A DNA stretch of 64,000 bases from an uncultured Ignavibacteriales bacterium. Lineage in GTDB: Bacteria > Zixibacteria > MSB-5A5 > GN15 > FEB-12. How positions within the stretch are numbered: position 1 is the stretch's first letter; each line of letters opens with the position of its first letter. Position numbers and translations under genes: made by a program. The notes under the pieces were generated by a model. The model was given only the letters and a program-made list of their open reading frames with translations. It did not search any database and was not told the DNA's origin. Where the stretch lies: positions 110,580-174,579 of the forward strand of contig CAYNIJ010000005.1 in assembly GCA_964397415.1 (NCBI GenBank). The letters are read 5' to 3'. Positions 29,492 through 57,987 of this stretch are shown in pieces.

Positions 29492-31032
29492 AGCCGCAAC
29501 CACTCCCGTCCATCTTTCTTGAGGAACTCATCGGCAGCATCCGGCCCCCATGTCCCCGCCTCATACAAATGCAGCGGCTCCTTACGCCAGCTACTGATGA
29601 TTCTATCCACCAGCCGCCAGGAAAGTTCCACTTCATCCTCACGCGCGAACAACGTCGAATCGCCGGTCAGCGCATCAAGGATCAATCGCTCATACGCCTC
29701 CGAGGTTGCCGCCTCGAACGCGCTTTCATACATGAAATCCATCCGCACTGGCGATACCCGCACTTCCTGTCCCGGCATCTTCGCGTGGAACGACAGCGTT
29801 ATCCCCTCCTGCGGCTGAATTCTGAAGCGAAGTACATTTGTGTCTGTCTGTGGGTTGCCCGTCCGATTGAACAGCATATGCGGGGGCGCCTTGAACACTA
29901 TCCCAACTTCCGTCACCCGCTTGGGCAACCGTTTACCCGACCGCAAATAAAACGGCACCCCGGACCATCGCCAGTTGTCGACATGTAGCTTGAGCGCCAC
30001 ATACGAATCCGTCATCGAATTCTCAGGAACGCCTTCCTCCTGACGGTACCCATACACCTGCTCACCCCCAATTGACCCCGGCCCGTACTGCCCGCGCACC
30101 GAGTACGCTGGAAGTTGTTCATCCGGTATTTGGCGGAGTGATTTCAGCACCTTGACTTTCTCGTCCCGTATGGCGGTCGCGTCAAACGATGCCGGCGGTT
30201 CCATCGCTATCAGCGAGAAAACCTGCATAATATGCGATTGGATCATATCCCGGATTATTCCGACTTCGTCAAAGTACCCTGCCCGTGACCCGACCCCCAG
30301 TGATTCCGCCACCGATATCTGGATATGATCGATATACCGCCTGTTCCAGAGTGGCTCGAATATCGCGTTGGCCAGTCTGAAGACGAGTATATTCTGAACA
30401 GTCTCTTTCCCCAGATAGTGATCGATTCGATAGACCTGGCGTTCTGCGAAGACCGAGTGAACCATCTTGTTCAATTCACCGGCTGAGTGCGCGTCATGTC
30501 CAAACGGTTTTTCGATCACGATCCGCGACCACGGCTCATGCTCCCCATGTTCCGATACCAGACCATGCGTATGCAACGCGCCAAGGATCTGCGGGAACGC
30601 GTCCGGCGGCGTTGCCAGATAATACATCACATTTTCCGCGGCCCCTTGAGTCTGCGCCTGCTCGCTGATCCTTGACTTGAGTCGGGTATAGCCCTCTCCC
30701 CCTTCGAATGTCCCCTGCACATAGGAGAGGCCGTTGAGGAACCGTTCAACCTGCTCCGGATTATCAGCCTGACGCCGCGAGAATTTCGCGAGTGCCGCCT
30801 TCATCTCCGCTCGAAATTGCGCGTCGCTCTTGTCACGACGCGCGAATCCGATAACCGAAAATGGCCGGCTGAGAAAACCGTCGAGATAAAGATTAAAAAG
30901 CGCCGGGATCAGCTTCCGCTGGGTGAGATCTCCGGTCGCCCCAAAGATGACAAACGTAAAAGAGCCTGCCTGCTTCGCACGCATGAACCGACTGGCGAAA
31001 GGGTTGCCAAAGGTCTCGGTTCGTATACTCAC
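29488..31032 (-). CDS. zwf: Glucose-6-phosphate dehydrogenase
   Basis: FGATGDLTQRKL and RIDHYLGKE motifs. Confidence 0.95.
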   Translation of the reverse strand: MSIRTETFGNPFASRFMRAKQAGSFTFVIFGATGDLTQRKLIPALFNLYLDGFLSRPFSVIGFARRDKSDAQFRAEMKAALAKFSRRQADNPEQVERFLNGLSYVQGTFEGGEGYTRLKSRISEQAQTQGAAENVMYYLATPPDAFPQILGALHTHGLVSEHGEHEPWSRIVIEKPFGHDAHSAGELNKMVHSVFAERQVYRIDHYLGKETVQNILVFRLANAIFEPLWNRRYIDHIQISVAESLGVGSRAGYFDEVGIIRDMIQSHIMQVFSLIAMEPPASFDATAIRDEKVKVLKSLRQIPDEQLPAYSVRGQYGPGSIGGEQVYGYRQEEGVPENSMTDSYVALKLHVDNWRWSGVPFYLRSGKRLPKRVTEVGIVFKAPPHMLFNRTGNPQTDTNVLRFRIQPQEGITLSFHAKMPGQEVRVSPVRMDFMYESAFEAATSEAYERLILDALTGDSTLFAREDEVELSWRLVDRIISSWRKEPLHLYEAGTWGPDAADEFLKKDGREWLRL

Positions 31033-31967
31033 TTCTTCTTTCCTTTGGCGGCAGGCTTCCCTTCAGCGCCTTTCTTCTCCACCACCGCATGTCCGCCAAA
31101 TTGCGCGCGCAATGCCGCCAGTACTTTTGACGAAAACGATTCCTCCTGCCGCGAACGGAATCTATTCATCAGCGCATAAGTCAGCGTGACCGCTGGCACA
31201 TCGAGATCGATCGCCTCCTGCACTGTCCAGCGTCCCTCGCCGGAATCCGCCACGTAGCCGGTGATCTTGGCTAATGACGGATCCTGCTTGAACGCCCTCT
31301 CCGACAGTTCCAACAGCCACGATCTCACCACCGACCCCTGATTCCACAGGTGGCAGACATCCGCCAGCTTGACGTCATATTCCGACTTCTCGAGTATCTC
31401 AAACCCTTCCGCGTACGCCTGCATCATGCCGTACTCGATCCCGTTATGGATCATCTTGACAAAGTGACCTGCCCCCGATGGTCCGCAGTGCAAATAGCCG
31501 TCTGGAGGCGCAAGTGTCTTAAAGATCGGCTCCGCTTTGCCAAATGCCTTCTTATCGCCGCCGATCATCATGCAATACCCGTTCTCAAGTCCCCAGATAC
31601 CGCCAGAGGTTCCAGAGTCCAGCAACGTTATCCCTTTGGCGTCAACTTCGGCTGCGCGACGTTTCGTTTCCCGATAATTCGAATTGCCGCCGTCAATGAT
31701 GGTATCACCTTTGCTCAGCAGTTTGGTCAGGTCATGGATCACCTGCTCTGTCGCTTCACCGGCCGGGACCATCACCCAGACGATCCGTGGAGCCCTGAGC
31801 TTACTCACCAAGTCGACCAGCGACTTTGCCGCTACCGCGCCAACCGCCGCTGCCTCTTTGACCGATTGCGGATTCCGCCCGTACACCACAATATCGTGAC
31901 CGCCGCGACGCAACCGTTTGACCATATTCCCCCCCATTTTCCCCAGCCCGACAAACCCGATCCTCAT
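31029..31967 (-). CDS. gnd: 6-phosphogluconate dehydrogenase, decarboxylating (short form)
   Basis: MRIGFVGLGKMGGNM Rossmann motif. The ~300-aa GntZ/YqeC-like form. Confidence 0.85.
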   Translation of the reverse strand: MRIGFVGLGKMGGNMVKRLRRGGHDIVVYGRNPQSVKEAAAVGAVAAKSLVDLVSKLRAPRIVWVMVPAGEATEQVIHDLTKLLSKGDTIIDGGNSNYRETKRRAAEVDAKGITLLDSGTSGGIWGLENGYCMMIGGDKKAFGKAEPIFKTLAPPDGYLHCGPSGAGHFVKMIHNGIEYGMMQAYAEGFEILEKSEYDVKLADVCHLWNQGSVVRSWLLELSERAFKQDPSLAKITGYVADSGEGRWTVQEAIDLDVPAVTLTYALMNRFRSRQEESFSSKVLAALRAQFGGHAVVEKKGAEGKPAAKGKKK

Positions 31968-33913
31968 ATCTTTACTCCCGTTGTTGTCCGTACTCCACGA
32001 ATTCGCGTCGCCACACTGGCCGCATCCATCCCCAGCGTTTTATACAGGTCATCCGGCTTTCCTGACCCGGCGTATTGCGGCACGCCAATCTTCATAAACT
32101 GAGTCTGCAGCCCAAGCGCAAACATACTCGAAGCAATATGCGTCCCTAATCCGGTCTTCACGTTGTGATCTTCGAGTACCACCACATGACGATGCATCGC
32201 CAGCATTCTCAGATCATCCTCATCCAGATCGCTCCAGTCGGAGACCGACACTAGTGATATCCGTCTCCCCTCTCCATTCAACGTCTCCCACGCCTGCATG
32301 CCGTACGGCAGCATATTACCGGAACAAACTAAGGCGATCTCCTCTCCCTTGCGTATCACTTCCATCCGGCCATAACGATATTGATAACCTTCTCCAAAAT
32401 ACGGCGAGCCATCCTCGCGAACTATCGTCGGTACTACCGCGCGTCCCATGATCACCGCAAATGACCCCGGCTGACTCAAAACGTAGCGTGTGATAGCATC
32501 CGTCTGATTCGGGTCGGCCGGCGTTATCACTTTCCAGCCGAATGTCGAATTGAGCAGACCAAAGTAGTCGATACACTGGTGGGTTTTCCCATCCTCGCCG
32601 ACATTCACCCCTGAGTGCGTGCAGAACAACTTGAAATTGGCATGATTGATATCATTCAACCGCGCCTGGTTGTATGTCTCCGCGATGCCGAAGACACCAA
32701 AATCCGACCAGATCGCCACCGCGTTCTCGGTCGACAGCGCTCCGACCGTTGCGGCGGTGGAATGCTCAGATATTCCCATCTGATAGAAATTGGATGGCCA
32801 CTTCTTTTCAAATCCATCCGTCTTGACTGATTTCGAAAGATCACAGTCAAACACCGCCATCGCGAATCCCGGGCGATTCATATTCGCTTCGGCGACCGAG
32901 ACCAGCGCCTTCCCCCATGCCCCGCGATTATCCGACTTGTCCTCCGCTTTGTAGCGGATCGGCGTGCCAGTCTCCACTTGGATATACTCATGTTCCGGCG
33001 TTTCAAACATCGGCGGCGGGCCTTGTTTGCGACGGTTCATCAATTCATCAAGGTCGTCATTGATCCCGCCAAGTTCCAGAAAGGCTTTCTTTGCCTGATC
33101 CGGCTTGAGCGCCGCGCCATGATACTCCGCGTCATTCTCCATAAACGACACCCCCTTCCCCATCACCGTATGCGCCAGTATCATGATGGGCGCGCCATCA
33201 TTGTGATAGGCGGTCCGCATCGCTTTGTAGAGCGCACGAAGATCATGCCCGTCCACTTCGATCACCCGCCACCCATCCGACTCCCACCCCGCCTTGATAT
33301 TCTGCGGCATCACTTTCGTCACGTCACCCGATATCTGCAACCGATTGTAATCAATTATCGCGATCACTCTGTTCAAACCAAACTTAACCGCCGTGCGACG
33401 CGCTTCCGCGATCTGCCCCTTCTGTTGTTCACCATCCCCCATCAGACAGAACGACCGGAAATCCATCCCTTTCAATCTCGCGTAGATCGCCTTGCCGACC
33501 GCGACCGACAACCCCTGCCCAAGATTTCCCGTATCCCACTCAATTCCCGGCACTGTCCGCTCGACATGCCCTTCAAACGGCGAACCCGCCTGACGGAATC
33601 CATGCAGCGCCGGATAGATATCGAAGAACCCTGCCGACGCCAGACCCGCGTATGCTCCCGGCGATGTATGCCCGTGTGACACGATTATTCTATCGCGATC
33701 ATCGCGATGTGGTTTCTTCGGATCGACCTTTGCCATGTGATAACACAGCAGATAGAACTCCAACGATGACATCGAGCCGCCCGGATGCCCCGAGGCCGCC
33801 ACCGTAGTCATCTTGATGATGTGACCGCGCGCCTTGCGACCTTCCTCGGTCAACTTCTCAAACCATGCCTGCGATAACTCGCTTTCGCCAAATCCACGCC
33901 AGGGATCAAACAT
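31964..33913 (-). CDS. tkt: Transketolase
   Basis: GHPGGSMS TPP motif. Full-length single-chain enzyme. Confidence 0.9.
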   Translation of the reverse strand: MFDPWRGFGESELSQAWFEKLTEEGRKARGHIIKMTTVAASGHPGGSMSSLEFYLLCYHMAKVDPKKPHRDDRDRIIVSHGHTSPGAYAGLASAGFFDIYPALHGFRQAGSPFEGHVERTVPGIEWDTGNLGQGLSVAVGKAIYARLKGMDFRSFCLMGDGEQQKGQIAEARRTAVKFGLNRVIAIIDYNRLQISGDVTKVMPQNIKAGWESDGWRVIEVDGHDLRALYKAMRTAYHNDGAPIMILAHTVMGKGVSFMENDAEYHGAALKPDQAKKAFLELGGINDDLDELMNRRKQGPPPMFETPEHEYIQVETGTPIRYKAEDKSDNRGAWGKALVSVAEANMNRPGFAMAVFDCDLSKSVKTDGFEKKWPSNFYQMGISEHSTAATVGALSTENAVAIWSDFGVFGIAETYNQARLNDINHANFKLFCTHSGVNVGEDGKTHQCIDYFGLLNSTFGWKVITPADPNQTDAITRYVLSQPGSFAVIMGRAVVPTIVREDGSPYFGEGYQYRYGRMEVIRKGEEIALVCSGNMLPYGMQAWETLNGEGRRISLVSVSDWSDLDEDDLRMLAMHRHVVVLEDHNVKTGLGTHIASSMFALGLQTQFMKIGVPQYAGSGKPDDLYKTLGMDAASVATRIRGVRTTTGVKI

Positions 33914-33931
33914 CGAACTTCCTTTATTCTT

Positions 33932-35623
33932 TTACTTGCTGACTATCTTCTTGATATGTCGATACAATTGCTCCAGCCCGTCGGCGGGCGAGCCATCCAC
34001 CTCGAACACCAGCGTCGGAAACTTCCGCTGTATCAGCGCCTGCGAATCCCCGATCGCCTGCGCCGTGATCAATTCACCAAACCCGAATTGCTGATTCGGT
34101 ATCGGCGCTTTGCCGTAGTCCCGTCGCATCAACACAATGAACATCCCCGTCGAATCTCCCCCTTTATACAATTGCCCGATCGAATGCAAAAACCTCGGCC
34201 CATACCCTCTTAATGTCGCGCACATTGACGCGTCACGTATGGTTGCGCGCATTTCGGCCAGAATTGACTCTGTCCGCCTGTCCGATTTAAAGTAATTCAG
34301 GATCGCGATATACTTCGGCGGCTTAGCTTTCGCGAAAAACTTCGCGAGTGATTCTTCGACTGAATCGCTGCTTTTTCCACCGAGAGAAATCAGCGTCAAT
34401 GCTTTCGACATGTTCCCCCGCTGCAGCGGGAACCGCCGCGATCTGCTGTACTTGTCCAGGATCGCCTTGGTATTCTCTTTACTCTCCGTCACATTCGGCT
34501 CGTCGAATGGATTGATCTCCATACACCAGCCTGCCGCTGCGGTCGCCGCTTCCCAGAGCAAAAACTGCCCTCCTAGCGAACTCAACTCCGGCAATGATAT
34601 TTCAACTATTGGCGCGCGAAGCATCGCCAGCTTCCGCTTCAACGTCTGCTGCTCTTTCGCCGACTCGTTCGCCATCTTGAGGAATACGAACATCCGGTCC
34701 GGACCATACGCGTCCACACTCCCCATTGGTTCCGCTTCTATCGGTACCACTCCGCGTTTCTTCTTACCGGTCGACTCCGCCACCAGCTGCTCAACCCACG
34801 GCACAAATGGCGCCGTCTTCTTCGACGCGACAAACGTCAGCTTGTCGATTCCCGACTTCCATCCCGCCGCCATAAACGCTCCCAGCGCCAGCGCCGGATT
34901 TGATTCATCCCCGCGTTCGGCTATCAACTCCTGCATCGCGCGCGCGTCATCCAGCAACTTTGCCAGATCTACCCCCGCGAAAAACCCCGGCACTAGTCCA
35001 AACAGCGAGAGCGAGGAATACCGCCCTCCAATGTCCGCCGGATTGAGAAATATCTTTCTGTACTTGTTCACCTTGGCAAACGCTTCCAGCCCGCTCCCCG
35101 GGTCAGTGATCGCCACGAACTGGCGCCCCGGCGTCTTGACATGCAATTCTCTCAACCGCGCCAGGAAATATGCCTCCTGCGACCGCGTCTCGATTGTCCC
35201 CCCCGATTTCGATGCCACTATGAACAACGTCCGCTTTAGGTCTACCGCTCGTGCCACCGCTGTCACGGCGTTCGGGTCCGTCGAATCAAGCACATGGAAT
35301 GAGGTCAATTTCGGATGTGTCCCGAACATCAGATTGAAAACTTCAGGACACAATGATGACCCCCCCATCCCCATCAGTATCACATGATCTATACCGCTCT
35401 TTATCGCGCTTTCGCCGAACGACACGATCGACTTTGCCTGCTTGCGCATCGCAAGCGTAACATCCACCCACCCCAAACGATTCGCGATCAATTTCTCGAG
35501 CGCGGCATCCCCGCCGAAAACCGAGGCTTCCCTTTGCATCAACAACGGAAGCATCGCTTCCGCCACTCCCCGCTTCATCATCAGCTCGTATTGCTTTTCT
35601 ATCTTCCCGGCTGCTATCTTCAC
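33932..35623 (-). CDS. pgi: Glucose-6-phosphate isomerase
   Basis: SIS-domain pattern (LMGMGGSSLCPEV, VASKSGGTIET, GGRYS). Confidence 0.8.
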   Translation of the reverse strand: MKIAAGKIEKQYELMMKRGVAEAMLPLLMQREASVFGGDAALEKLIANRLGWVDVTLAMRKQAKSIVSFGESAIKSGIDHVILMGMGGSSLCPEVFNLMFGTHPKLTSFHVLDSTDPNAVTAVARAVDLKRTLFIVASKSGGTIETRSQEAYFLARLRELHVKTPGRQFVAITDPGSGLEAFAKVNKYRKIFLNPADIGGRYSSLSLFGLVPGFFAGVDLAKLLDDARAMQELIAERGDESNPALALGAFMAAGWKSGIDKLTFVASKKTAPFVPWVEQLVAESTGKKKRGVVPIEAEPMGSVDAYGPDRMFVFLKMANESAKEQQTLKRKLAMLRAPIVEISLPELSSLGGQFLLWEAATAAAGWCMEINPFDEPNVTESKENTKAILDKYSRSRRFPLQRGNMSKALTLISLGGKSSDSVEESLAKFFAKAKPPKYIAILNYFKSDRRTESILAEMRATIRDASMCATLRGYGPRFLHSIGQLYKGGDSTGMFIVLMRRDYGKAPIPNQQFGFGELITAQAIGDSQALIQRKFPTLVFEVDGSPADGLEQLYRHIKKIVSK

Positions 35624-35634
35624 GGTGTCCTTCC

Positions 35635-36303
35635 TTATTTGCGCGATGGCCGCGCTGGGATCCGTTCAATCTCCGTAACCAATTCCGCCCTGTCTTTCAC
35701 CCCGAAAAATCCTGTCCCCATTACCAGCAGATCCGCCCCAGCTTCTACAACTTTCCTCGCGTTGTTCCGGTCTATCCCGCCATCCACCTCGATTTGCGTA
35801 TGCAATTGATGATGGTCCACATACTCCCGCGCCGCGACGATCTTCGGCGTCACCGACTCGATATAACTTTGCCCGCCAAATCCCGGAAAGACCGACATGA
35901 TCAACAGCAGATCAAAATGCTCCAAATACGGCAACACTTTTTCTACCGGCATATCCGGATTGATAGAAATCCCCGGCTTGATCCCCATCTCCTTGAGGCG
36001 TGCGGCATGTTCTCGTGGATCAGGATGGACCTCGAGATGGAAGGTGATATAATCCGAGCCGGCCTTGGCGAACGGTTCGAAATACTTCTCCGGTTCAGTC
36101 AACATCAGGTGAACATCCAGCGGATGTTCCGTCAGCTTGTTGACCATCTTCACCACGCCCGGCCCGAACGAGATATTCGGTACAAAGTGGCCATCCATGA
36201 TATCGAGGTGATAGATCGAAATACCAGCCAGCTCAGCGCTGGCGATCTCTTCCCCCAAACGGGAGAAATCGGCGCCCAGGATCGAAGGTGCGATTTTTGC
36301 CAT
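35635..36303 (-). CDS. rpe: Ribulose-phosphate 3-epimerase
   Basis: Start set at MAKIAPSILGADF. Also HLDIMDGHFVPN and VDGG motifs. Confidence 0.9.
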   Translation of the reverse strand: MAKIAPSILGADFSRLGEEIASAELAGISIYHLDIMDGHFVPNISFGPGVVKMVNKLTEHPLDVHLMLTEPEKYFEPFAKAGSDYITFHLEVHPDPREHAARLKEMGIKPGISINPDMPVEKVLPYLEHFDLLLIMSVFPGFGGQSYIESVTPKIVAAREYVDHHQLHTQIEVDGGIDRNNARKVVEAGADLLVMGTGFFGVKDRAELVTEIERIPARPSRK

Positions 36304-36571
36304 AGCTTGAATAATGGCGATTGTATCCCAGTCGGGCAAATCCTTTTTTCCCGCTGTCACACGCCGATATTGCCCCCACAACCCACACTCGCTGAGCAAG
36401 TTACTTCACACCTTCCTCCCCCGGCGCTAGCCAGCATCACTTTGTATTGTGGGCCCATATTCCTCGCTTGCATCCGCCCCCCTCAATCCCTACTTTGACT
36501 CTGTCCGATGGCGCCCTGCGCCCCGACTTAGTCAACCAGACAAATGCATCTATATCTAAAAGGAGCGACCC

Positions 36572-40241: not shown

Positions 40242-40276
40242 TTGACAACTTTGTCACTATTGAATATCATGTGACA
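40242..40276 (+). promoter_or_regulatory. Promoter with overlapping inverted repeat, upstream of the NuoE/NuoF-like operon
   Basis: TTGACA (40242-40247), 17-nt spacer, TATCAT (40265-40270). TGTCAC (40252-40257) and GTGACA (40271-40276) bracket the -10 element. Confidence 0.45.
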
Positions 40277-40446
40277 GAAGTAACAAAGGAACGCTGAATT
40301 GGTGATGAAATCTCTCCTGCTCTGCCACCTGCAACTCCCCGGCAGCTATGTCTCCGAGGAGACCGATCGATGACCATATCGCTCTGTATTGTTGGCTCTC
40401 GATTCTCACCAGCGTTTGCATCCTCCCCGGGCGAAAGGAAATGATA

Positions 40447-40938
40447 ATGACTGAGGGCTCCTACCTGTTGGCCCGCTTTGCCGACCCTGAAAAACTCCTT
40501 CCTGCCATGCAGACCGTCCAGTCTTCGCACGATGTGGTCGAATGGAACGCGGTCGATGGCCATATCCATCTTGTCATGAAGGTCTCCAGACCATCCGGCT
40601 CCATTCCTGACCCGCTGAAACGTCTCGACGGAGTCGATCAGGTCATGACCTATGACATCCTTGACGACTCGCACAGCAAGGAACTCGACCACGCCATGGC
40701 CAACGCCTACGTTTTTCTCGAGGTCGAACCTCTCAAAGCCGACGCTTTGCGCAAGTCGCTTGCGGCAATTCCCGAAGTTGTTTCCTGTACGACCACCAAA
40801 GGCGGCTGTGACCTCGTCGCTATCGTCACCGGCGGCAATTTCGACGCCGTCGATTCAACCATAAACGATCATATCCGGATGCTCGATGGCATACTTCGCG
40901 TAAAGCACGCCTATATCATCGAGCTGACGAAACTATAG
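40447..40938 (+). CDS. Protein of two tandem Lrp/AsnC-type ligand-binding (RAM) domains with no HTH
   Basis: The second half strongly resembles the AsnC effector domain (AYVFLEV...IPEVVSC...GGCDLVAIV...ILRVKHAYII). Start at 40447 follows AAGGAA. The 40348 alternative would add a hydrophobic N-terminus. Confidence 0.5.
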   Translation: MTEGSYLLARFADPEKLLPAMQTVQSSHDVVEWNAVDGHIHLVMKVSRPSGSIPDPLKRLDGVDQVMTYDILDDSHSKELDHAMANAYVFLEVEPLKADALRKSLAAIPEVVSCTTTKGGCDLVAIVTGGNFDAVDSTINDHIRMLDGILRVKHAYIIELTKL

Positions 40939-40949
40939 AGGAAGTGACC

Positions 40950-41456
40950 ATGTCTGACCAGCAGACGAACCAATTTAAACCGTTTAATGTCGATGTCTGG
41001 AAGTTCGATGGTCATGCCGGGGCGTTGATCCCGCTCCTCCAGTCGGCCCAGGATACCTACGGCTATGTCTCCGAGAAAGCTATCGATTATATCAGTCATG
41101 TCACCGGCATCCCGGCGGCTGATATCTACGGCGTCGTTACGTTCTACGCCCAGTTCCGCACTAAACCGCTTGGCAAGCATATCCTCAAAGTTTGCAACGG
41201 TACCGCCTGCCACGTCAATGGCGCCAAAGGTGTGTACGAAGTCATTCAGGATGAGCTGAGCATCAACTACGAAGAGACCTCCGACGATGGCGAGTTCTCT
41301 CTCCTCTCAGTCGCCTGTATCGGCTGTTGCTCGCTGGCGCCGGTTATCACCATCGATGGCGAAACATACGGCCGCCTGAACGCCCAGAAACTCCGCAAGA
41401 TCCTCCGCGATTTCAAACGCCAGATGAAGGATCAGGCGAAAGCGGCGGTGGAGTGA
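40950..41456 (+). CDS. NuoE/HydC-like [2Fe-2S] subunit
   Basis: Thioredoxin-like 2Fe-2S pattern (C...C...CxGxC: VCNGTACHVNGA, VACIGCCSLAP). Confidence 0.85.
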   Translation: MSDQQTNQFKPFNVDVWKFDGHAGALIPLLQSAQDTYGYVSEKAIDYISHVTGIPAADIYGVVTFYAQFRTKPLGKHILKVCNGTACHVNGAKGVYEVIQDELSINYEETSDDGEFSLLSVACIGCCSLAPVITIDGETYGRLNAQKLRKILRDFKRQMKDQAKAAVE

Positions 41457-41465
41457 GGTGAAACT

Positions 41466-43223
41466 ATGAAAACGATCACAGTCGGACTTGGCACCTGCGG
41501 CATCTCTGCCGGCGGCGAAAAAGTCTTTAAAGCATTACAGGACGAACACAAAGACCACCCGAACGCTTTCGTTCTCAAAGAGACCGGATGTGTTGGTATG
41601 TGCTATCGCGAAGTTCTGGTCGAGATCACTAATGGCTCCGGCACCGGCCATCTTTACGGCGAAGTTACTCCCGAGCGGGTCGGCCGCATCATCGATGAAG
41701 ACGTGCTCGGCAACAAACAGATCGACGAATGGCTCGTCTCCGGCGAACAGCGCGAAAAGGGATTCTTCGAAAATCAGGTTCGCATCGTCCTCCGCAATTG
41801 CGGAAAGATCGACCCCGGCTCAATCGATGAATACATCGCCGCCGGTGGCTACAAGGCGATTGAAAAAGCGCTCAGGTCGATGACTCAGGATCAGGTTATC
41901 GAAGAAGTCCTCCAGTCCGGCCTTCGCGGTCGCGGCGGCGCCGGTTTCATGACCGGCCTCAAATGGAAATTCACCAAAGCCGCCCCCGGCACCAAAAAGT
42001 ATATCCTCTGTAATGCCGATGAAGGCGACCCCGGCGCGTTTATGGATCGCTCCGTGCTCGAGTCCGACCCACACGCCGTTCTCGAAGGAATGATGATCGC
42101 CGCCTACGCGATCGGCGCCGATGATTCCTACATCTACTGCCGAGCTGAATATCCGAAAGCTGTTGCCCGTCTCCGCCAGGCGATCGGCCAATGCAAAGCC
42201 AAAGGGTTGCTCGGCGAGAATATCCTCGGTACCGGCTTCAAGTTTGATATCAAGATCAAGGAAGGCGCCGGCGCGTTCGTCTGCGGAGAAGAGACAGCGC
42301 TCATCGCCTCCATTGAAGGCCGCCGTGGCATGCCCCGCTTCCGCCCACCGTTCCCGGCCCAGTCCGGACTCTGGGGTAAACCAACCAACATTAACAATGT
42401 TGAGACGTACGCCAACGTCCCCTGGATTATTTTGAACTCCGGCGCAGCGTTCGCCGCCTACGGTACCGCCGATTCAAAAGGGACGAAAGTCTTCGCGATG
42501 GCCGGCAAAGTCCGTCGCACTGGGCTCGTCGAAGTCCCGATGGGGATCACCGTCAACCAGATCGTATTTGATGTCTGCGGCGGCATCGTCGACGACAAAA
42601 AGTTCAAAGCCGTCCAGATGGGCGGGCCCTCCGGTGGATGTATCCCCGCCTCAATGGGTGATATCTCAATCGACTACCAGAATATCCCCAAGACTGGCGC
42701 CATCATGGGCTCCGGCGGTCTCATCGTCATGGATGAAACCACCTGTATGGTCGATGTCGCCAAGTACTTCCTCACCTTTACGCAGGCTGAGTCCTGCGGC
42801 AAATGCACGTTCTGCCGCATCGGCACCAAGCGGATGCTTGAGATTCTCGAGCGCATCTGCGAAGGAAAGGGGACGATGGATGACCTCGCCAACCTCGACG
42901 AGCTCTCCGAACAGATCAAGGCCGCTTCGCTCTGCGGTCTCGGTCAATCCGCCCCCAACCCGGTCGTAACTACATTGAAATACTTCCGTGATGAATATGT
43001 CGCGCATATCGTCGATAAGAAATGCCCGGCCCATGTCTGCGCGCCGTTGTTGACCTACACCATCAACGACAACTGCACCGGCTGCGTCGTCTGTGCCAAG
43101 GCCTGCCCCACCAACGCTATCACCGGCGAACGAAAGCAAATGCACTTTATAACGCAGGATCTTTGCATCAAGTGCGGCAAATGCTTCACCGTCTGCCGCT
43201 TCGACGCGGTGGTGAAGGAGTAA
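41466..43223 (+). CDS. NuoF/HydB-like NADH-binding FMN/Fe-S subunit with extra N-terminal 2Fe-2S and C-terminal 2x[4Fe-4S] domains
   Basis: GRGGAGFMTGLKW, CNADEGDPGAF and ESCGKCTFCR motifs. The C-terminus has CTGCVVCAKACP and CIKCGKCFTVC. Confidence 0.9.
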   Translation: MKTITVGLGTCGISAGGEKVFKALQDEHKDHPNAFVLKETGCVGMCYREVLVEITNGSGTGHLYGEVTPERVGRIIDEDVLGNKQIDEWLVSGEQREKGFFENQVRIVLRNCGKIDPGSIDEYIAAGGYKAIEKALRSMTQDQVIEEVLQSGLRGRGGAGFMTGLKWKFTKAAPGTKKYILCNADEGDPGAFMDRSVLESDPHAVLEGMMIAAYAIGADDSYIYCRAEYPKAVARLRQAIGQCKAKGLLGENILGTGFKFDIKIKEGAGAFVCGEETALIASIEGRRGMPRFRPPFPAQSGLWGKPTNINNVETYANVPWIILNSGAAFAAYGTADSKGTKVFAMAGKVRRTGLVEVPMGITVNQIVFDVCGGIVDDKKFKAVQMGGPSGGCIPASMGDISIDYQNIPKTGAIMGSGGLIVMDETTCMVDVAKYFLTFTQAESCGKCTFCRIGTKRMLEILERICEGKGTMDDLANLDELSEQIKAASLCGLGQSAPNPVVTTLKYFRDEYVAHIVDKKCPAHVCAPLLTYTINDNCTGCVVCAKACPTNAITGERKQMHFITQDLCIKCGKCFTVCRFDAVVKE

Positions 43224-46200
43224 TGACCATGATATCAGTAACCATAAATGGCAAACAGCACTCGGTCCCGGCCGACAACACCATTCTTCAGACCTGCAAA
43301 GATCTCGGTATCGATAACATCCCGACTCTTTGTTACGACCCGAAACTCCCGCCGTTCGGCTCCTGTTTCCTCTGCGTGGTCGAGGTCGAAGGCCAGAATC
43401 GCCTCTTCCCCGCCTGCTCCACCAAGCCGACTGAGGGAATGAAGATCCACACCCGCTCAGACAAAGTTGTTGCCGCGCGCAAAACCTGTCTTGAACTGTT
43501 GCTTTCCGATCACTACGCCGACTGCTTCGGTCCCTGCCGTCTGAACTGCCCCGCCGATGTTGACATTCAGGGGTACATGTCCCTCATCAACCTTGGTAAA
43601 TTCAAAGAAGCGGTCGCGCTTATCAAAGAGAAGAACCCGCTTCCCTCTGTCTGTGGTCGTGTCTGCACGCGCAAGTGCGAGATCAACTGCCGTCGCACAC
43701 TGGTCGACGCCCCCGTCGGTATCGACTTCCTCAAGCGTTACGCCGCCGACCAGGATATGATCGGCCAGATGTGGCAGCCGGACACCAAGCCGGATAATGG
43801 CCAGCCGGTCGCTATCATCGGTGCAGGTCCTGCCGGTCTTACTGCCGCTTACTATCTCGTTCTCGAAGGCTACCGCCCGACTATTTTCGAAGCTCTCCCC
43901 AATCCGGGTGGAATGCTTCGTTACGGAATCCCTGAATATCGCCTGCCGAAAGAGGTCCTCGACAAAGAGATCAACTGGATTCTCGATCTCGGCGTCGAAC
44001 TCTACACCAACAAGATGCTTGGCCGCGATATCACTATCGACGGTCTCTTCAAGCAGGGCTTCAAATCCGTCTTCATCGGCCTCGGTGCGCAGGTCGGCAA
44101 ACCGATGGCCGTCGAGAATGAGAATGTCGATGGTGTCCTCTCCGGCGTGGACTTCCTTCGCCAGGTAGAACTGAAGACCAACCCGCCGATCAAGGGTCGC
44201 GTGGTTGTCGTCGGCGGCGGAAATACCGCTATCGATGCCGCCCGTACCTCGCTCCGCCTCGGCGCCGATGAGGTCATCCTCCTCTATCGCCGCACCCGCA
44301 ATGAAATGCCCGCTAATATGGTCGAGATCGAAGCCGCCGAGCACGAAGGCATCAAGATGCACTTCCTCGCCGCTCCGGTCCGCGTTAATGTCGCCAATGA
44401 GCGCATGGAATCGATCACCTGTATCCGCATGGAACTCGGCGAACCCGACTCGTCGGGCCGCCGCCGCCCTGTCGAAGTCAAAGGCTCGGATTACACGCTC
44501 GAATGCGATTGGGTTATTTCCGCTATCGGTCAGGAACCTGACCTCACCGGTGTCGAATCAAAACAGGGGGATGTCAAAGTCACCAAGTGGAAGACCATCG
44601 TCGCTAAAGAAGGGACATTCGACACCGACCGCCCCGGCGTTTTCTCCGGTGGTGATGTCGTCACCGGCCCGGCCGATGCTATCGACGCTATTGCCGCTGG
44701 TCGCATGGCCGCTCGCGCCATCGACAAGTATATCCGCACCGGCATTGTCGAACCGTTCGTCGATCGCTTCGAGAGCAAGCGCGACAACTTCCACAAGATG
44801 ACGCGTCAGGATATACCGCAGGTACAAGAATCCCACCGCCATCATGCCAAAGAAATGCCGGTCGAAAAACGGATTCGTTCATTTGAAGAAGTTGAATTCG
44901 CCTACGACGAAAAGGATGCCTTCGAAGAATCCCTCCGTTGCGCCGAGTGCGGCTGCGATGTCGGTCTCGCCTGCACCCTGCAGGACTACTGCACCGAGTA
45001 CGGCGTCGATCAGACCCGCTTTGTCGGCGAATACAACAAATACAAAGTTGATACTCGCCATCCGTTCATCAAGCTTGATGCCAACAAGTGCATCCGCTGT
45101 GGACGGTGCGTCAACACCTGCGCCGAGATTCTCAATGTCTCCGCGCTCGGGTTCGTCAATCGTGGCTTTCGTACGATTGTCAAGCCGGCGATGGAAAAGG
45201 CGCTTCACGAAACAAACTGCGTCTCGTGCGGCAACTGCATCGATGTCTGCCCAACTGGCGCGCTGGTCGAAAAAATGCCATTCCGCCGCTCCGGCCCGTG
45301 GAAGATGGATTCAGTCGAGAATGTCTGCAACTATTGCTCGGTCGGCTGTAACCTGACCCTCAAGGTCAAAACCAACGACATCTTCTATGTAGCTGGTGCC
45401 TCTCCAGAGTCTCAGCCAAACCACGGCGAACTTTGCGTCAAAGGACGCTTCGGTTATCAGCATTATCTCGATGGCTCCCGCGTCACCAAACCAATGCTCA
45501 AACGCGCTGGGAAACAGGTGCCGACCAGTTGGAACGAAGCCTTCGACGCTATCGAGTCCGGCCTGCAGAAAGTCATCGAGGATTATTCCCCCGATGAGAT
45601 CCTCGTTGCCGCTTCCCCGAAACTGACCAACGAGGAACTCTACCTCGCCGGCCGTTTTGCACGCGCAGCGATCGGAAATAATAACCTGGTTTCGTTCCAT
45701 CAGCTTATTAACGACGCTGACTACCACGCGCTCGATGATATGTTCGGCGCCACGCTTTCGACAGCGACCACTGATGATGTCGCCAACGCCGACCTCTATC
45801 TTTTCCTCGGCGGCAATCCGACCAGCGAGAACCCCGTTCTTGGCTGGCAGATGAAGCGCCGCATGAAGCAGGGGACCAAGTCGATCGTCATCAACTCCTC
45901 GCAGATCGACCTGGTCGCCTACGCCTCCGTCTGGGCCGATGCCCGCCGTGGCACCGCCACCACTCTGTTGAATGGCGTCATGGGTGAACTGATCCGTCGC
46001 GGCAAGGATGATACTGAATACTTGAAATCGAAAACGGTCAACTCCGATCAGGTCATCGCGGTCCTCGCCAAGACTGACCTGACCGAAGTCGCGAACATTA
46101 CCGGCGTCTCTATTGATTCCATTCGCAACATGGCTGACCTGTTGGCCGATCCGTCGAAAAAGATCGTCGCCTGGTACAATCTCGATAGCCGCATCGAGCG

Positions 46201-46966
46201 TGCGTCGAACGATCTCAAAGCGCTCGCCACTCTCATGCTCCTGCTTGGACGCGTTGGCAAACCCGGCAACGGTATCGCCCTGATGTCCAGTCAGGCGAAT
46301 CACACCGGAAGTCGGATAGTTGGATTCGACGCAAGACTCCTCCCGGGTGGCGGACTTATTGACAACAGCAAACTTCTCGCGGAGACCTCCAAAGTCTGGC
46401 GCACCGACCTGGCGAAACTCATCGAAAAGTCGGGCACCAATGTCAGCCGGAAACTCCGTCAGGATAAGATCCGCGCCGCGGTGATCATTGGCGAAAATCC
46501 GGCAGCGTCGCCGGAATTCAATGCCTTCATCAACAATCTCGATTTCCTCGTGGTTGCCGACCTTTTCCAGACCGAGACCGCTATGGCCGCGGATGTTTTC
46601 ATCCCGCTTTCCAGCTATCTCGAGACCGAAGGTCACCTGACCAACTGGTCCGGCATGCGCCAATCAACTACACCTATCGGTGAGCCGATGAACGGCCTCT
46701 CCACGCGCGCCATCATCGAACGACTCTGCGAAGATATGGGGCACCATATCGGGTTGGCGAATTTCGATGAATTGGTGAGTGAGATTGAATTCATGATGCG
46801 CGAAGCCGGCTGTGAGGGACGGATCAACGGCTCATTCCTGACTCCGGATAACAAAGCGCATTTAGTGCTTTACTCCGACCAGGTAATGCCGACTCGCGCC
46901 GATCAGACACAGGTGATCGAACTCGACCGCCGCATCACCGACCGGATGAAACTCATCCGCGCGTAA
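43223..46966 (+). CDS. 1247-aa fusion: NuoG-type 2Fe-2S, GltD-like FAD/NAD(P)H module, 4Fe-4S ferredoxin domains, and a degenerate formate dehydrogenase alpha-like molybdopterin domain
   Basis: Start at TAATG (43223) or ATG at 43229; the 43022 ORF-track start lies inside the previous gene. Motifs: CYDPKLPPFGSCFLC; VAIIGAGPAGLTAAY and VVGGGNTAIDAA; CIRCGRCVNTC and CVSCGNCIDVCP; VCNYCSVGCN; NHGELCVKGRF. Confidence 0.85.
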   Translation: MTMISVTINGKQHSVPADNTILQTCKDLGIDNIPTLCYDPKLPPFGSCFLCVVEVEGQNRLFPACSTKPTEGMKIHTRSDKVVAARKTCLELLLSDHYADCFGPCRLNCPADVDIQGYMSLINLGKFKEAVALIKEKNPLPSVCGRVCTRKCEINCRRTLVDAPVGIDFLKRYAADQDMIGQMWQPDTKPDNGQPVAIIGAGPAGLTAAYYLVLEGYRPTIFEALPNPGGMLRYGIPEYRLPKEVLDKEINWILDLGVELYTNKMLGRDITIDGLFKQGFKSVFIGLGAQVGKPMAVENENVDGVLSGVDFLRQVELKTNPPIKGRVVVVGGGNTAIDAARTSLRLGADEVILLYRRTRNEMPANMVEIEAAEHEGIKMHFLAAPVRVNVANERMESITCIRMELGEPDSSGRRRPVEVKGSDYTLECDWVISAIGQEPDLTGVESKQGDVKVTKWKTIVAKEGTFDTDRPGVFSGGDVVTGPADAIDAIAAGRMAARAIDKYIRTGIVEPFVDRFESKRDNFHKMTRQDIPQVQESHRHHAKEMPVEKRIRSFEEVEFAYDEKDAFEESLRCAECGCDVGLACTLQDYCTEYGVDQTRFVGEYNKYKVDTRHPFIKLDANKCIRCGRCVNTCAEILNVSALGFVNRGFRTIVKPAMEKALHETNCVSCGNCIDVCPTGALVEKMPFRRSGPWKMDSVENVCNYCSVGCNLTLKVKTNDIFYVAGASPESQPNHGELCVKGRFGYQHYLDGSRVTKPMLKRAGKQVPTSWNEAFDAIESGLQKVIEDYSPDEILVAASPKLTNEELYLAGRFARAAIGNNNLVSFHQLINDADYHALDDMFGATLSTATTDDVANADLYLFLGGNPTSENPVLGWQMKRRMKQGTKSIVINSSQIDLVAYASVWADARRGTATTLLNGVMGELIRRGKDDTEYLKSKTVNSDQVIAVLAKTDLTEVANITGVSIDSIRNMADLLADPSKKIVAWYNLDSRIERASNDLKALATLMLLLGRVGKPGNGIALMSSQANHTGSRIVGFDARLLPGGGLIDNSKLLAETSKVWRTDLAKLIEKSGTNVSRKLRQDKIRAAVIIGENPAASPEFNAFINNLDFLVVADLFQTETAMAADVFIPLSSYLETEGHLTNWSGMRQSTTPIGEPMNGLSTRAIIERLCEDMGHHIGLANFDELVSEIEFMMREAGCEGRINGSFLTPDNKAHLVLYSDQVMPTRADQTQVIELDRRITDRMKLIRA

Positions 46967-55782: not shown

Positions 55783-57987
55783 ATGCGCTACTCGAGAACC
55801 TTACTCTGCGTCGGCCTCTGCCTCTTTGTAGCTGCCGCGGCGGCAGTGAAGGCCGAGAACGATCACCGCTGTCCCCCGGTTTTTTCGGACAGCAAGTACA
55901 AGCTGGAATACAATCACTGTGACAGCGCCAGCTATACCTTCAAAGCGACACCGCCCAAAAATCGCAAGGGCGAGTATCCCGCCGATGGCATTATCCGCTA
56001 TCGACTGGTGAAGGGCCCCGGCTCGCTTGATTCCGTCTCCGGTTATTGGTCGCTTCCCGCCGGTACTCCGGTCGATTGGCGCAATTGCGTGGTCCTGATC
56101 GAGGCTTACTGGAAGAGCGCTCCTCGTCTGAAGACCCGGACCGGTCTGGTGCTTTTCCCGAAGAACGCCAAGCCGGTGATTATGGTCAATGAGGTAGAAC
56201 GCCGCGATACCATCGAAGTCCCGCTTGGCGCGCCATTCTCCTTGCCGATATCTGTGGTCGACCGTGATGAGTGCGATCAGCCGGTACTGACCCTCGAGCG
56301 CGTCCGTCCGCTCCCAAACGGCGCGGTTGAATTGGCGCAGAACGGTTCAGACTGGGCGCTCAATTTCGAGCCGACTCCCGAAGACTCCGGCAAGTATTTC
56401 ATTGTGATGCTGAACGCGTCCGATGGCTACAGCCATAACAAGTTCAAATTCTTCTTTGTCGTCGTGCCTGCTGAAGACGACGGCGAAGGCGAAGGTGACG
56501 ACAACGGCGGCGGTGGTGGCGAGCAGGAAGTCTTCACTTCGCTCGGCCTCTCGCTTGGTGTCGCGCGCAATCTTGATCCCGGCCAGATCGCCGAGATCCC
56601 GCTTAACCTTGACTCTATCTCGCAGCAGCAGGGTGTCGGTGGCTTCGATGTGCTCATCGCGTTCGACAGCCTCGCCCTCTCTGTTTCTGAAGTTCTCCCC
56701 GGCTCGCTCTATGATTCCTGCGCCTGGGAATACTTCACCTATAGTGCGTCGCCCGGTCAGGTTCGCATAGTTGGTATCGCCGAAACCAACAACGGCGATA
56801 TCCACCCGTCGTGCGGTGTCCCGACTCTGCCTGCTTCGCTGGCGAAACTTCGCTTCCTGGTCGGCTCCGATGCTTCCTGGCGCTGCCGCTTTGCGCCGGT
56901 CCGCTTCTACTGGACCGACTGCAGCAGCAACTCCATCTCCTCCGCCTCAGGTCTGCACCTCTTTGGCGCGGAGAAGGTCTTTGAATTGCAGGATTCTCTC
57001 TTTGTAGAACTCCCAGCCGCGTCCGCGTCGCTCCCCGGCTTTGGCGGCCTTCCGCTGGTAGGCTGCGATGGCCCCGTGCGTAAGATCGTCTTCTACTCCG
57101 GCGGTGTCAGTATCACCTGCCCGCCTCCGGCGTACGTATTCCAGCGCGGTGATGTCAACCTCGATACCCTCGCGTTTGGTGTCGAAGATTTCCGTCTCTT
57201 TGGACGCGTATTCACGCAGGGTCCGTCGGTCTTGACGCTCGACCCGAACAAGCAGTCCGAGCTGTCCGACATCAATCAGGACAGCACGCCGCTCGCAATC
57301 GAAGACTATGTGTTGATGTATCGCCGCAACACCGGTCTGGATACGTCCGATGTTCTCCCGCCTAACTCGCCGAACATCGCGTCATTCTTCATCAATGCCG
57401 GTATGCTTGTCGCGGCGACTTCTGACACGCTTGGCGCGGTTCAGATAGTGCTCTCGGGCAATGTCGCGCCGCAACTGCTTGCGACGACTATGTCGATGTC
57501 CACCTACGCGCGCAACGGCTCTACCTACGTTCTGCTTTCTCCTAAGGAGAATTTCCCGAACGCCACGTTCTTCCGGGCCAGCCCGCTGTTACGCATCCTG
57601 ACGACGACCTCGATCCAGTCGGTCGCCACTGCCACCAAGTATGGCGGCAAGGTGACGGCGCAGGTTGGCCAGACGATGGTCAACGCTTCACTGACCGAAG
57701 GTCTTCTGCCGGGCTCGTATGAGCTGCAGCAGAACTACCCGAACCCGTTCAACGGCGCGACTGTCATCTCCTTCGCTCTGCCGACCAGCGGCGAAGTCAA
57801 TCTGGAGATATTCAACGTGCTCGGTAAGGTCGTCTATCGTCGATCTGAATCGCTTGAGGCCGGCAGTCACCAGTTTAGCTGGGATGGCACCGCGCTGGAT
57901 GGCTCCGATGTCGCCACAGGCATCTACTACTATCGCCTGACTTCCCGCGACTTCACCGCGACGAAGAAGATGATGTACCTGAAGTAG
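55783..57987 (+). CDS. Secreted multi-domain protein: Ig/cadherin-like, acidic Gly linker, cohesin-like, dockerin-like, T9SS C-terminal sorting domain
   Basis: Signal peptide. FEPTPEDSGKYFIVMLNASDG (Ig-like). EDDGEGEGDDNGGGGGE linker. IPLNLDSISQQQGVGGFDVLIAFDSLAL (cohesin-like). GDVNLDTLAFGVEDF and SDINQDSTPLAIEDY (dockerin-like pair). LQQNYPNPFNG...GIYYYRL...MMYLK (T9SS CTD). Confidence 0.7.
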   Translation: MRYSRTLLCVGLCLFVAAAAAVKAENDHRCPPVFSDSKYKLEYNHCDSASYTFKATPPKNRKGEYPADGIIRYRLVKGPGSLDSVSGYWSLPAGTPVDWRNCVVLIEAYWKSAPRLKTRTGLVLFPKNAKPVIMVNEVERRDTIEVPLGAPFSLPISVVDRDECDQPVLTLERVRPLPNGAVELAQNGSDWALNFEPTPEDSGKYFIVMLNASDGYSHNKFKFFFVVVPAEDDGEGEGDDNGGGGGEQEVFTSLGLSLGVARNLDPGQIAEIPLNLDSISQQQGVGGFDVLIAFDSLALSVSEVLPGSLYDSCAWEYFTYSASPGQVRIVGIAETNNGDIHPSCGVPTLPASLAKLRFLVGSDASWRCRFAPVRFYWTDCSSNSISSASGLHLFGAEKVFELQDSLFVELPAASASLPGFGGLPLVGCDGPVRKIVFYSGGVSITCPPPAYVFQRGDVNLDTLAFGVEDFRLFGRVFTQGPSVLTLDPNKQSELSDINQDSTPLAIEDYVLMYRRNTGLDTSDVLPPNSPNIASFFINAGMLVAATSDTLGAVQIVLSGNVAPQLLATTMSMSTYARNGSTYVLLSPKENFPNATFFRASPLLRILTTTSIQSVATATKYGGKVTAQVGQTMVNASLTEGLLPGSYELQQNYPNPFNGATVISFALPTSGEVNLEIFNVLGKVVYRRSESLEAGSHQFSWDGTALDGSDVATGIYYYRLTSRDFTATKKMMYLK

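Follow-up and report, generated by a model that had tools for sequence, protein, structure and literature searches.

Electron-bifurcating transhydrogenases of the NfnABC family (also termed StnABC or Nfn-Bfu) have been described structurally from three organisms. NAD+-dependent reduction of ferredoxin by NADPH, as well as the reverse reaction, has been shown for the enzymes of S. ovata (PMC10482914), T. sibiricus (PMC12018979) and C. saccharolyticus (PMC11829005). The large subunit, NfnA or StnC, carries a C-terminal domain that resembles the formate dehydrogenase FdhF. In S. ovata StnC this FdhF-like domain is catalytically inactive and its two clusters are an off-pathway evolutionary remnant; deletion of the domain or of its clusters left no correctly assembled active complex to be recovered (PMC10482914). 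The C. saccharolyticus NfnA has an incomplete pterin binding site and shows no pterin density. Its A2-A4-A5 branch is likely a non-functional remnant and possibly an 'overflow electron pool', and the N-terminal domain of NfnC sits in the cleft between the formate dehydrogenase-like domain and NfnB (PMC11829005). The T. sibiricus complex is a monomeric heterotrimer with a shortened formate dehydrogenase-like domain (PMC12018979). A dead formate dehydrogenase domain has therefore already been described by the three cryo-electron microscopy studies of solved family members, and there is no new biology in the domain itself. Discussed here are three genes at positions 40944..46966 of a 64,000-nucleotide stretch of contig CAYNIJ010000005.1, the whole of which is called the window.

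The three genes are identified from their sequences as those of an NfnABC transhydrogenase. The large subunit NfnA is an uncharacterised member of this known, structurally described family. A first-pass annotation of the window had noted a formate dehydrogenase-like protein that had lost its catalytic residues, and had interpreted this as a catalytic module retained as a scaffold; the observation is confirmed and the interpretation supported. With high confidence, the complex can be viewed as an NfnABC transhydrogenase whose NfnA carries a dead formate dehydrogenase domain, a cluster-bearing side branch that most likely serves as a scaffold.

The nfn genes and their products

The genes nfnC, nfnB and nfnA are all on the + strand, with tight spacing or overlap. 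The first, nfnC (40944..41456, +; stnA in the Stn naming), encodes a NuoE-like subunit with a thioredoxin-fold [2Fe-2S] domain (PF01257, E 2e-49), and its best matches among solved structures are 9n5u_C, which is NfnC (5.5e-46), 9bov_C and 8oh5_A. The second, nfnB (41466..43223, +; stnB), encodes a NuoF-like FMN/NAD subunit (PF01512, PF10589 and Fer4 domains) with 9bov_B (1e-255), 8oh5_B (3e-253) and 9n5u_B as best solved matches; the alignment with the first two is full length (residues 4-582). Residues 534-582 form a C-terminal 2x[4Fe-4S] ferredoxin domain (Pfam Fer4) that is typical of bifurcating members. The ferredoxin-like domain of NfnB, with the B3/B4 clusters, separates bifurcating from non-bifurcating NuoF homologues.

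The third gene, nfnA (43223..46966, +; stnC), encodes 1,247 amino acids and ends in a TAA stop at 46964-46966. The open reading frame (ORF) as listed starts at 43022, but this includes a 5' extension into the end of the preceding gene. ATG 43223 is the likely start, because it overlaps the upstream stop (TAATG) and has a GAAGGAG ribosome-binding sequence ahead of it; residue numbers of NfnA are counted from this codon. The ORF is intact, and the TAA stop is the same in L082 (GCA_016708025.1), a syntenic relative that is 95% identical. The best solved matches of NfnA are 9bov_A (1.5e-248, residues 2-1219), 8oh5_C (1.6e-240) and 9n5u_A (4e-201). The first-pass annotation was right about the formate dehydrogenase-like half of what it called a fusion protein. 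The fusion is not an unexplained one, however, since by its structure matches the protein is NfnA/StnC, the large subunit of NfnABC/StnABC.

Pfam domains of NfnA occur in the order Fer2_4, Fer4_20, Pyr_redox_2, Fer4_Nqo3, Molybdop_Fe4S4 and Molybdopterin, and Molydop_binding is absent. The N-terminal [2Fe-2S] domain spans residues 2-79 (43226..43459, +; PF13510, E 4.5e-18). It is followed by an NfnL/GltD-like NADPH/FAD module with two [4Fe-4S] clusters at residues 103-493 (43529..44701, +; PF14691 and PF07992), in which residues 103-179 are the two-cluster domain of the dihydropyrimidine dehydrogenase/GltD type and residues 196-493 the pyridine-nucleotide oxidoreductase domain (Pfam). The module matches the NfnB/NfnL structures 4ylf_B and 5jca_L and is the predicted NADPH site of NfnA. 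Next is a NuoG-like Fe-S region, residues 573-681 (44939..45265, +), which consists of a four-Cys cluster site and a two-cluster ferredoxin domain of the NuoG type (residues 614-681; PF22117, E 1.5e-13). Its twelve cysteines (C573, C576, C578, C584, C623, C626, C629, C633, C666, C669, C672 and C676) are invariant in 25 homologues, and residues 561-693 show no amino-acid difference from L082. The protein scores 326 bits with TIGR01973, the NCBIfam NuoG model, against a cut-off of 470, and no nuo genes adjoin it.

The C-terminal part starts with a [4Fe-4S] domain of the molybdopterin-oxidoreductase type at residues 696-747 (45308..45463, +; PF04879, E 3e-13). Its cluster is A5 in the Nfn naming and C1 in the Stn naming, and it adjoins the pterin in formate dehydrogenases. 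Formate dehydrogenase-like domains II and III, without the catalytic residues, follow at residues 753-1155 (45479..46687, +; PF00384, E 3.5e-39). The C-terminal tail comprises residues 1156-1247 and the TAA (46688..46966, +); in a multiple sequence alignment with FdhF it covers the first strand of domain IV only, and it has a helix at the end.

At the position of K171 the three solved NfnAs also have Lys, and none of the 25 sequences of the family alignment departs from it; NfnL (4ylf_B) has a Glu cluster ligand there. Allowing for an offset in chain numbering, we infer that K171 is equivalent to K165 of T. sibiricus, the Lys ligand of cluster A7. The sequence features that mark membership of the NfnABC family are thus present: the three-gene cluster, the NfnA domain order, the cluster cysteines together with the A7 Lys, and the ferredoxin domain of NfnB. 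A separate observation concerns Cys144 (43652..43654), in the motif PSVCGRVC. It is invariant in the clade of the window protein, and NfnL and GltD also have Cys here, but the position is Leu or Ile in all three solved NfnA/StnC proteins. Because of this difference, the two clusters of the GltD-like module may be ligated otherwise than in the solved enzymes.

Loss of the catalytic residues and of domain IV

The C-terminal half of NfnA is similar to true formate dehydrogenases to a degree well in excess of chance. It matches FdhF of the T. kivui HDCR (7qv7_S) with an E value of 2e-61 and E. coli FdhF (1aa6) with 4e-50 (phmmer), other solved formate dehydrogenases are matched as well, and a tblastn search with FdhF residues 1-508 aligns window positions 45305-46795 (E 2e-53). 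Two independent alignments are available, one with HMMER against 7qv7_S and the other a MAFFT L-INS-i alignment of the window protein, close relatives, E. coli FdhF (fdhF of MG1655) and 44 catalytic formate dehydrogenases. Both support the by-eye register of the first-pass annotation, and both recover the codons it had named. Ile829-Asn830 (45707..45712, +) stands at Sec140-His141 of FdhF, where Sec is selenocysteine; Ile is encoded at 45707-45709 and Asn at 45710-45712. Ser1022 (46286..46288, +) stands at Arg333, within IALMSSQANHTG, and so replaces the active-site Arg of PLRGQxNVQG. There is no in-frame TGA, as had been stated. Among the E. coli sequence blocks given in the first-pass annotation, NEVNYVMQ is wrong and should be NETNYVMQ, and the remaining blocks compared match the real FdhF. 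The first Asn of FdhF GQNNVQG corresponds to Ala (SQAN) both in the window protein (Ala1026, 46298..46300) and in its 95% relative. Most close relatives (homologues P0003-P0020) show a conserved Cys at this position, in the form S/T-x-Q-C-N.

Erosion of the pterin pocket, judged here from sequence motifs, extends beyond the catalytic residues. Within FdhF 1-545, 90% or more of the 44 catalytic enzymes agree at 121 alignment columns; the window protein keeps 69 of these, E. coli FdhF 96. The lost columns cluster in the DHCxRxCH active-site loop, the HP of GxNPxxxHP, DPR, MGxxQH, and PLRG and VQ of the Arg333 motif, with further losses near FdhF positions 451-460. Retained are the four [4Fe-4S] cysteines, the structural glycines, GENP, DxFxxETA and ADVxxP, as well as the equivalent of FdhF K44, the Lys that bridges to the pterin, which is found in ELCVKGRF of NfnA. 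The NCBIfam Fdh-alpha model (TIGR01591) has a cut-off of 666.25 bits; the protein reaches 312 and covers only positions 2-496 of the 672 in the profile.

Nearly all of the C-terminal domain IV, which binds the pterin dinucleotide, is absent. PF01568 is not detected in the window protein, whereas the same Pfam library finds it in an Aeromonas counterpart with an E value of 8e-30. Only about 23 residues align past FdhF residue 560, compared with 130-146 in catalytic relatives. The first-pass annotation had considered the whole domain missing; this stands for nearly all of it, but the tail still aligns with the first strand (F-TPD-KAH vs F-TPNGLAQ of FdhF). The early end that it reported is likewise real, but the length it gave, about 60 amino acids past the block resembling ISEIATRMG, is not correct; there are 75 after the CEDMG block. 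It had also asked whether a downstream or separate ORF could supply the missing part. None does so in the window: tblastn searches of the 64 kb with three different domain IV sequences gave a best E of ~1, and the next gene is a convergent FAD/BBE oxidase.

The losses are shared by a large family. A search with the full-length protein gives more than 100 full-length homologues of 1,196-1,272 amino acids and 47-95% identity, from Zixibacteria, Bacteroidota, Ignavibacteria, Acidobacteriota, Verrucomicrobia, Syntrophorhabdales and unclassified genomes. PF00384 is present in all of them and PF01568 in none. A query with the C-terminal half had returned only ~20 close relatives, mostly fragments, and had suggested a small isolated clade; in view of the full-length search this is an artefact of candidate selection. 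The family alignment comprises the window protein and 107 full-length homologues (48-95% identity), i.e. 108 sequences. None of the 107 has Cys or Sec followed by His. Nine different residues (V, L, A, T, I, S, N, Q or M) occur at the Sec-equivalent position across the 108 sequences, and the His-equivalent position is mostly N, S or T. The Arg333-equivalent is S (63), T (33), R (9), N (2) or G (1).

Across the family the proteins end within 5 alignment columns of the end of the window protein, and the C-terminus of the window protein is homologous to that of C. saccharolyticus NfnA (FLTPDNKAHLVLYSD vs FATPDKTVHLFVSKD). Because the ends coincide in 107 homologues and the C-terminus has a homologue in a solved protein, the sequences indicate that the truncation is ancestral to the NfnA family and no local accident. 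Loss of the catalytic site and of domain IV is, on the same comparisons, old and family-wide.

It may be added that Arg is kept at the Arg333 position in 9/107 homologues (e.g. P0228 and P0233, of the Syntrophorhabdales type). It is also found at the related loci L005, L008 and L058 and in S. ovata StnC, for example as IILLRDYSN, or LVRTKNN in StnC. These Arg-keeping dead domains also lack Cys/Sec-His and domain IV. Apparently the catalytic residues were not all lost at one time.

The idea that the window protein is an unusually well-preserved intermediate was also looked at. It was based on the contiguous alignment with real formate dehydrogenases, on TM-scores slightly above those to StnC and C. 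saccharolyticus NfnA, and on identities in the formate dehydrogenase-like domain of 33% to a catalytic relative vs 25-28% to other NfnAs. The idea was rejected. In a comparison of 106 columns conserved among 17 catalytic domains the window protein keeps 63, the family median being 57.5 and the range 38-71, and several Firmicute and Desulfovibrionaceae NfnAs keep more formate dehydrogenase-conserved columns than it does.

A genome scan with one genome per species gave at least 600 matched stretches over many phyla, and the best 80 loci were examined. One of these (L072) is unreadable at the active site; of the other 79, the Cys/Sec-His pair is absent at 73. The gene nfnB lies directly 5' of nfnA at 73 loci, which are 72 of the 73 degenerate loci plus L072, and nfnC is also present at the nfnB-bearing loci wherever the contig reaches far enough. 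At L053, the sole degenerate locus where nfnB is missing, there is hardly any upstream DNA.

Six loci appear catalytic. They keep DHCARL[C/U]H, PLRGQxNVQG and a domain IV of 130-146 residues. Two, L013 and L021, are from metagenome-assembled genomes and have an in-frame TGA at DHCARL-U-H (at 3869 in L013 and 2808 in L021) and a normal domain IV; the proteins are 1,364 and 1,359 residues long. The other four (L074, L076, L077 and L080, from position 6001) are from Aeromonas, Shewanella and Photobacterium and represent a Cys version of 1,387-1,401 residues. In addition to its PF01568 domain, the Aeromonas protein scores 292 bits with PF00384, vs 135 for the window protein. All six have the N-terminal architecture of ~690 residues in common with the window protein, at 39-51% identity and with the same Pfam order, and look like single-polypeptide NADPH-linked formate dehydrogenases. 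No nfnB or nfnC is found near them within the flanking DNA (up to 6 kb each side). Since the six loci with an active site and domain IV have no nfnBC nearby, the NfnA architecture appears to exist in two forms, one catalytic and stand-alone, the other dead and coupled to NfnBC. Neighbour-joining trees of the formate dehydrogenase-like and N-terminal parts disagree on where the catalytic GltD-fused proteins belong; the method is unreliable on fast-evolving domains.

Two further homologues, P0022 (Chloroflexi, 897 amino acids) and P0029, are annotated as formate dehydrogenase alpha. They keep PF01568, and the Cys-His pair is absent; the site reads GSRLYNSSS in P0022 and FTRYEHAPT in P0029. These may be other non-canonical or inactive formate dehydrogenase-like proteins outside the Nfn family.

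Could the window protein be a working enzyme after all, a molybdenum/tungsten (Mo/W) formate dehydrogenase or a different molybdoenzyme whose active site is non-canonical? The complex would then be a bifurcating formate dehydrogenase linked to NADPH. Taken as a whole the protein strongly resembles formate dehydrogenases, metagenome pipelines name homologues 'formate dehydrogenase major subunit', and catalytic-looking proteins of the same architecture do exist. These relatives, however, differ from the window protein in exactly the features at issue and never adjoin nfnBC. Moreover, the window protein has no Cys/Sec metal ligand, His or Arg, and in the family the ligand position is taken by any of nine residues. 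Domain IV is absent with no separate copy in the window, the DPR, MGxxQH and PLRG motifs are lost, and the score is below the Fdh-alpha cut-off. Finally, a Pfam scan of 20 flanking genes found no Mo-cofactor or formate dehydrogenase accessory genes. A live formate dehydrogenase is thus hardly credible. The domain would be unable to hold a Mo/W-bis-pterin or to oxidise formate, because Sec/Cys-His-Arg, ~40% of the conserved residues and almost all of domain IV are lost; the absence of the cofactor itself we infer from homologues.

Retention of the dead domain

Loss of the chemistry has not been accompanied by decay of the fold. An AlphaFold2 model of residues 690-1247 has a pLDDT of 94.4 and a pTM of 0.93, with TM-scores of 0.84-0.86 to solved formate dehydrogenases and of 0.79-0.81 to the matching part of solved NfnA/StnC. 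Based on the confident model and on its close superposition with formate dehydrogenases, domains I-III are predicted to have an intact fold, with the chemistry-bearing residues and the cap gone. The cysteines of the [4Fe-4S] cluster of this domain, C702, C705, C709 and C738, are invariant in the alignment of 25 family members. Relative to L082 the dN/dS ratio is 0.049 in the formate dehydrogenase-like part (dS 0.87), 0.024 in the GltD part and 0.048 in the 2Fe-2S domain. The formate dehydrogenase-like domain is clearly under purifying selection. It is therefore no decaying fossil, and the ratio fits a structural role.

These data bear on the proposal that the domain is a fossil without function that decays neutrally, or else that the gene is a truncated pseudogene or an artefact of assembly. 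It is true that the catalytic residues and domain IV have been lost, and that the domain evolves faster than the rest of NfnA: at comparable divergence its identity is ~58%, as compared with 79% for the GltD part and 86% for the Fe-S part. The low dN/dS ratio does not agree with neutral decay, nor do the invariant cluster cysteines and the very confident model. The ORF is intact, its stop is common to L082, and 107 homologues from many phyla have a conserved end point. In addition, deletion of the domain in StnC blocks recovery of active complex (PMC10482914). A fossil or artefact is very improbable.

A mechanism can be proposed from the solved homologues. NADPH would be oxidised at the FAD of the GltD/NfnL-like module, and a series of [4Fe-4S] and [2Fe-2S] clusters within NfnA would carry the electrons to the NfnB FMN, where these would be split, reversibly, between NAD+ and ferredoxin. 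The C-terminal 550 residues would retain the formate dehydrogenase alpha fold (domains I-III), with the [4Fe-4S] cluster as a dead-end side branch. Packed against NfnB and NfnC, the formate dehydrogenase-like domain would hold the complex together, and this is the most likely reason for its retention. The first-pass annotation had drawn a parallel with NuoG, i.e. a catalytic Mo/W-pterin module that is without its active site and cap domain but was kept as an Fe-S or structural scaffold. Residue loss in 107 homologues and the invariant cluster cysteines support this proposal, as do the dN/dS ratio, the confident fold of domains I-III and the published work on solved family members.

Several points weigh against this explanation. 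The homologues from which activity, cofactor content and oligomeric state are taken share only 25-28% identity with the window protein in the formate dehydrogenase-like domain. The window protein keeps the full length of the Sec loop, Lys44 and about half of the nucleotide-binding motifs (GENP, ADVxxP), and because of these some ligand binding in the old pocket may occur. Furthermore, T. sibiricus NfnA works with a much shorter formate dehydrogenase-like domain (PMC12018979), and therefore the full domain is not essential for bifurcation itself.

Perhaps, then, the domain is more than a scaffold, the old pterin pocket or the dead-end clusters having taken on a new role such as ligand binding, storage of overflow electrons, or docking of a partner or regulator. 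Purifying selection on the formate dehydrogenase-like part is as strong as that on the 2Fe-2S domain. At the former active site the clade has conserved motifs of its own, SFH, ADYHALD, VINS, WADPRRGT, GFDxxLLPGG and GHxTNW, although a packing interface would equally give conserved surface motifs. Lys44 and the loop lengths are kept, but the Sec- and Arg-equivalent positions drift, and the erosion of the window protein (63 of the 106 columns) is typical of the family. The 'overflow electron pool' was raised for the C. saccharolyticus structure (PMC11829005), and a conserved ligand-binding-domain protein is encoded just upstream of nfnC; on the other side, no ligand density has been reported in the solved homologues. 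On balance a new role is unlikely.

A specific form of it, in which the former pterin pocket binds a small ligand, or forms a regulated electron store with the dead-end A4/A5 clusters, possibly with involvement of the AsnC-type protein encoded upstream, must be looked at as a long shot. It is suggested by the loop lengths, Lys44, the roughly half of the nucleotide-binding motifs that remain, the clade's own conserved motifs and the strong purifying selection. If true, it would apply to a widespread bacterial form of NfnA. A dead, cluster-bearing domain that holds the complex together is still the preferred reading.

Neighbouring genes, significance and known systems

The protein just mentioned is of the Lrp/AsnC type, 165 amino acids long, with a ligand-binding domain only (40441..40938, +; PF01037, E 7e-11); no DNA-binding domain is found in it. 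Its ORF ends 5 bp before nfnC. By tblastn, such a protein lies directly upstream of nfnC in 15/81 related loci searched, and the gene is also called in L082. From its position it may be a fourth, undescribed component or a regulator of this NfnABC clade. A promoter/terminator scan gave counts no higher than shuffled controls; one promoter-like site (11/12 matches) is at 40242-40270.

Other flanking genes are of the housekeeping type: queG, a BBE-type FAD oxidase (the convergent gene directly downstream of nfnA), an aminotransferase and DegP. About 5 kb upstream of the nfn genes, on the other strand, is a run of oxidative pentose-phosphate genes (28445..36399, -). It consists of glucose-6-phosphate dehydrogenase (29488..31032, -), 6-phosphogluconate dehydrogenase (31029..31967, -), transketolase (31964..33913, -), a PGI-like protein (33932..35623, -) and ribulose-phosphate epimerase (35635..36399, -). 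As a source of NADPH these genes make sense beside an NADPH-linked transhydrogenase, although their position is no proof of anything. Two other genes, at 55783..57987 (+) and 11650..13821 (-), encode a type IX secretion C-terminal sorting domain or an FlgD-Ig-like C-terminal domain. Type IX sorting domains fit the FCB-group (Zixibacteria/Bacteroidota-like) affiliation of the closest relatives.

In public metagenome annotation, homologues of the window protein go under the names 'formate dehydrogenase major subunit' or 'molybdopterin-dependent oxidoreductase', and no NCBIfam model reaches its cut-off with the window protein. Because of this combination, formate oxidation and a requirement for Mo/W could be wrongly assigned to Zixibacteria, Bacteroidota, Ignavibacteria, Acidobacteriota and others when their metabolism is reconstructed. 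The gene cluster instead predicts an NADPH/NADH/ferredoxin transhydrogenase, and the practical value of the finding is in correcting a widespread formate dehydrogenase annotation. A 2022 survey placed the NfnABC family 'mainly Firmicutes'; with the matched stretches counted above, the family is much wider than that. Also of interest is the coexistence of catalytic and dead versions, with only the dead one coupled to nfnBC, which offers a natural series for the passage from catalytic module to scaffold.

Of the known systems, S. ovata StnABC (8OH5/8OH9; Kumar et al. 2023) is the same three-gene complex with the same order of 2Fe-2S, GltD/NfnL-like, NuoG-like Fe-S and FdhF-like parts. StnC is also without the Sec/His pair, has an equivalent end point and keeps the cluster cysteines. 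Differences are nonetheless considerable. Identity in the formate dehydrogenase-like domain is ~25% (Foldseek), and HMMER aligns separate stretches only. StnC has gaps in the former Sec loop, whereas the window protein has the full loop length, and the Ser of the window protein at the Arg333 position is an apparent Arg in StnC, within the low-scoring stretch LVRTKNN. The window NfnA exceeds StnC in length by 75 residues. S. ovata is a Firmicute acetogen, whereas the window organism is an uncultured FCB-group bacterium.

The C. saccharolyticus NfnA (9BOV/9BP5) is the best overall solved match and has a homologous C-terminus (F-TPD...HL), but five residues are deleted exactly at the Sec-His loop, which is kept in the window protein. 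The C. saccharolyticus complex forms a tetramer. T. sibiricus NfnA (9N5U/9N5V) belongs to the same complex and shares the same N-terminal 800 residues (E 4e-201), with Lys at the A7-ligand position. It is ~200 residues shorter than that of S. ovata and is without most of the formate dehydrogenase-like domain and the A4 cluster; in contrast, the window protein is of the long bacterial form.

The catalytic formate dehydrogenases (FdhF 1AA6/1FDO, HDCR FdhF 7QV7 and R. capsulatus FdsA 6TG9) have the same domain I-III fold (TM-score 0.83-0.86), [4Fe-4S] site and Lys44 as the window protein, at 27-33% identity, and several nucleotide-binding motifs are kept in common. Unlike these enzymes, the window protein has no Sec/Cys140, His141 or Arg333, 52 of the 121 conserved columns are changed, and there is no domain IV. 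NuoG/Nqo3 of complex I gives significant sequence matches and has likewise kept a molybdopterin-oxidoreductase fold, without the cofactor, as an Fe-S and structural subunit. It has no GltD insertion, however, and it belongs to another complex with another function than NfnA.

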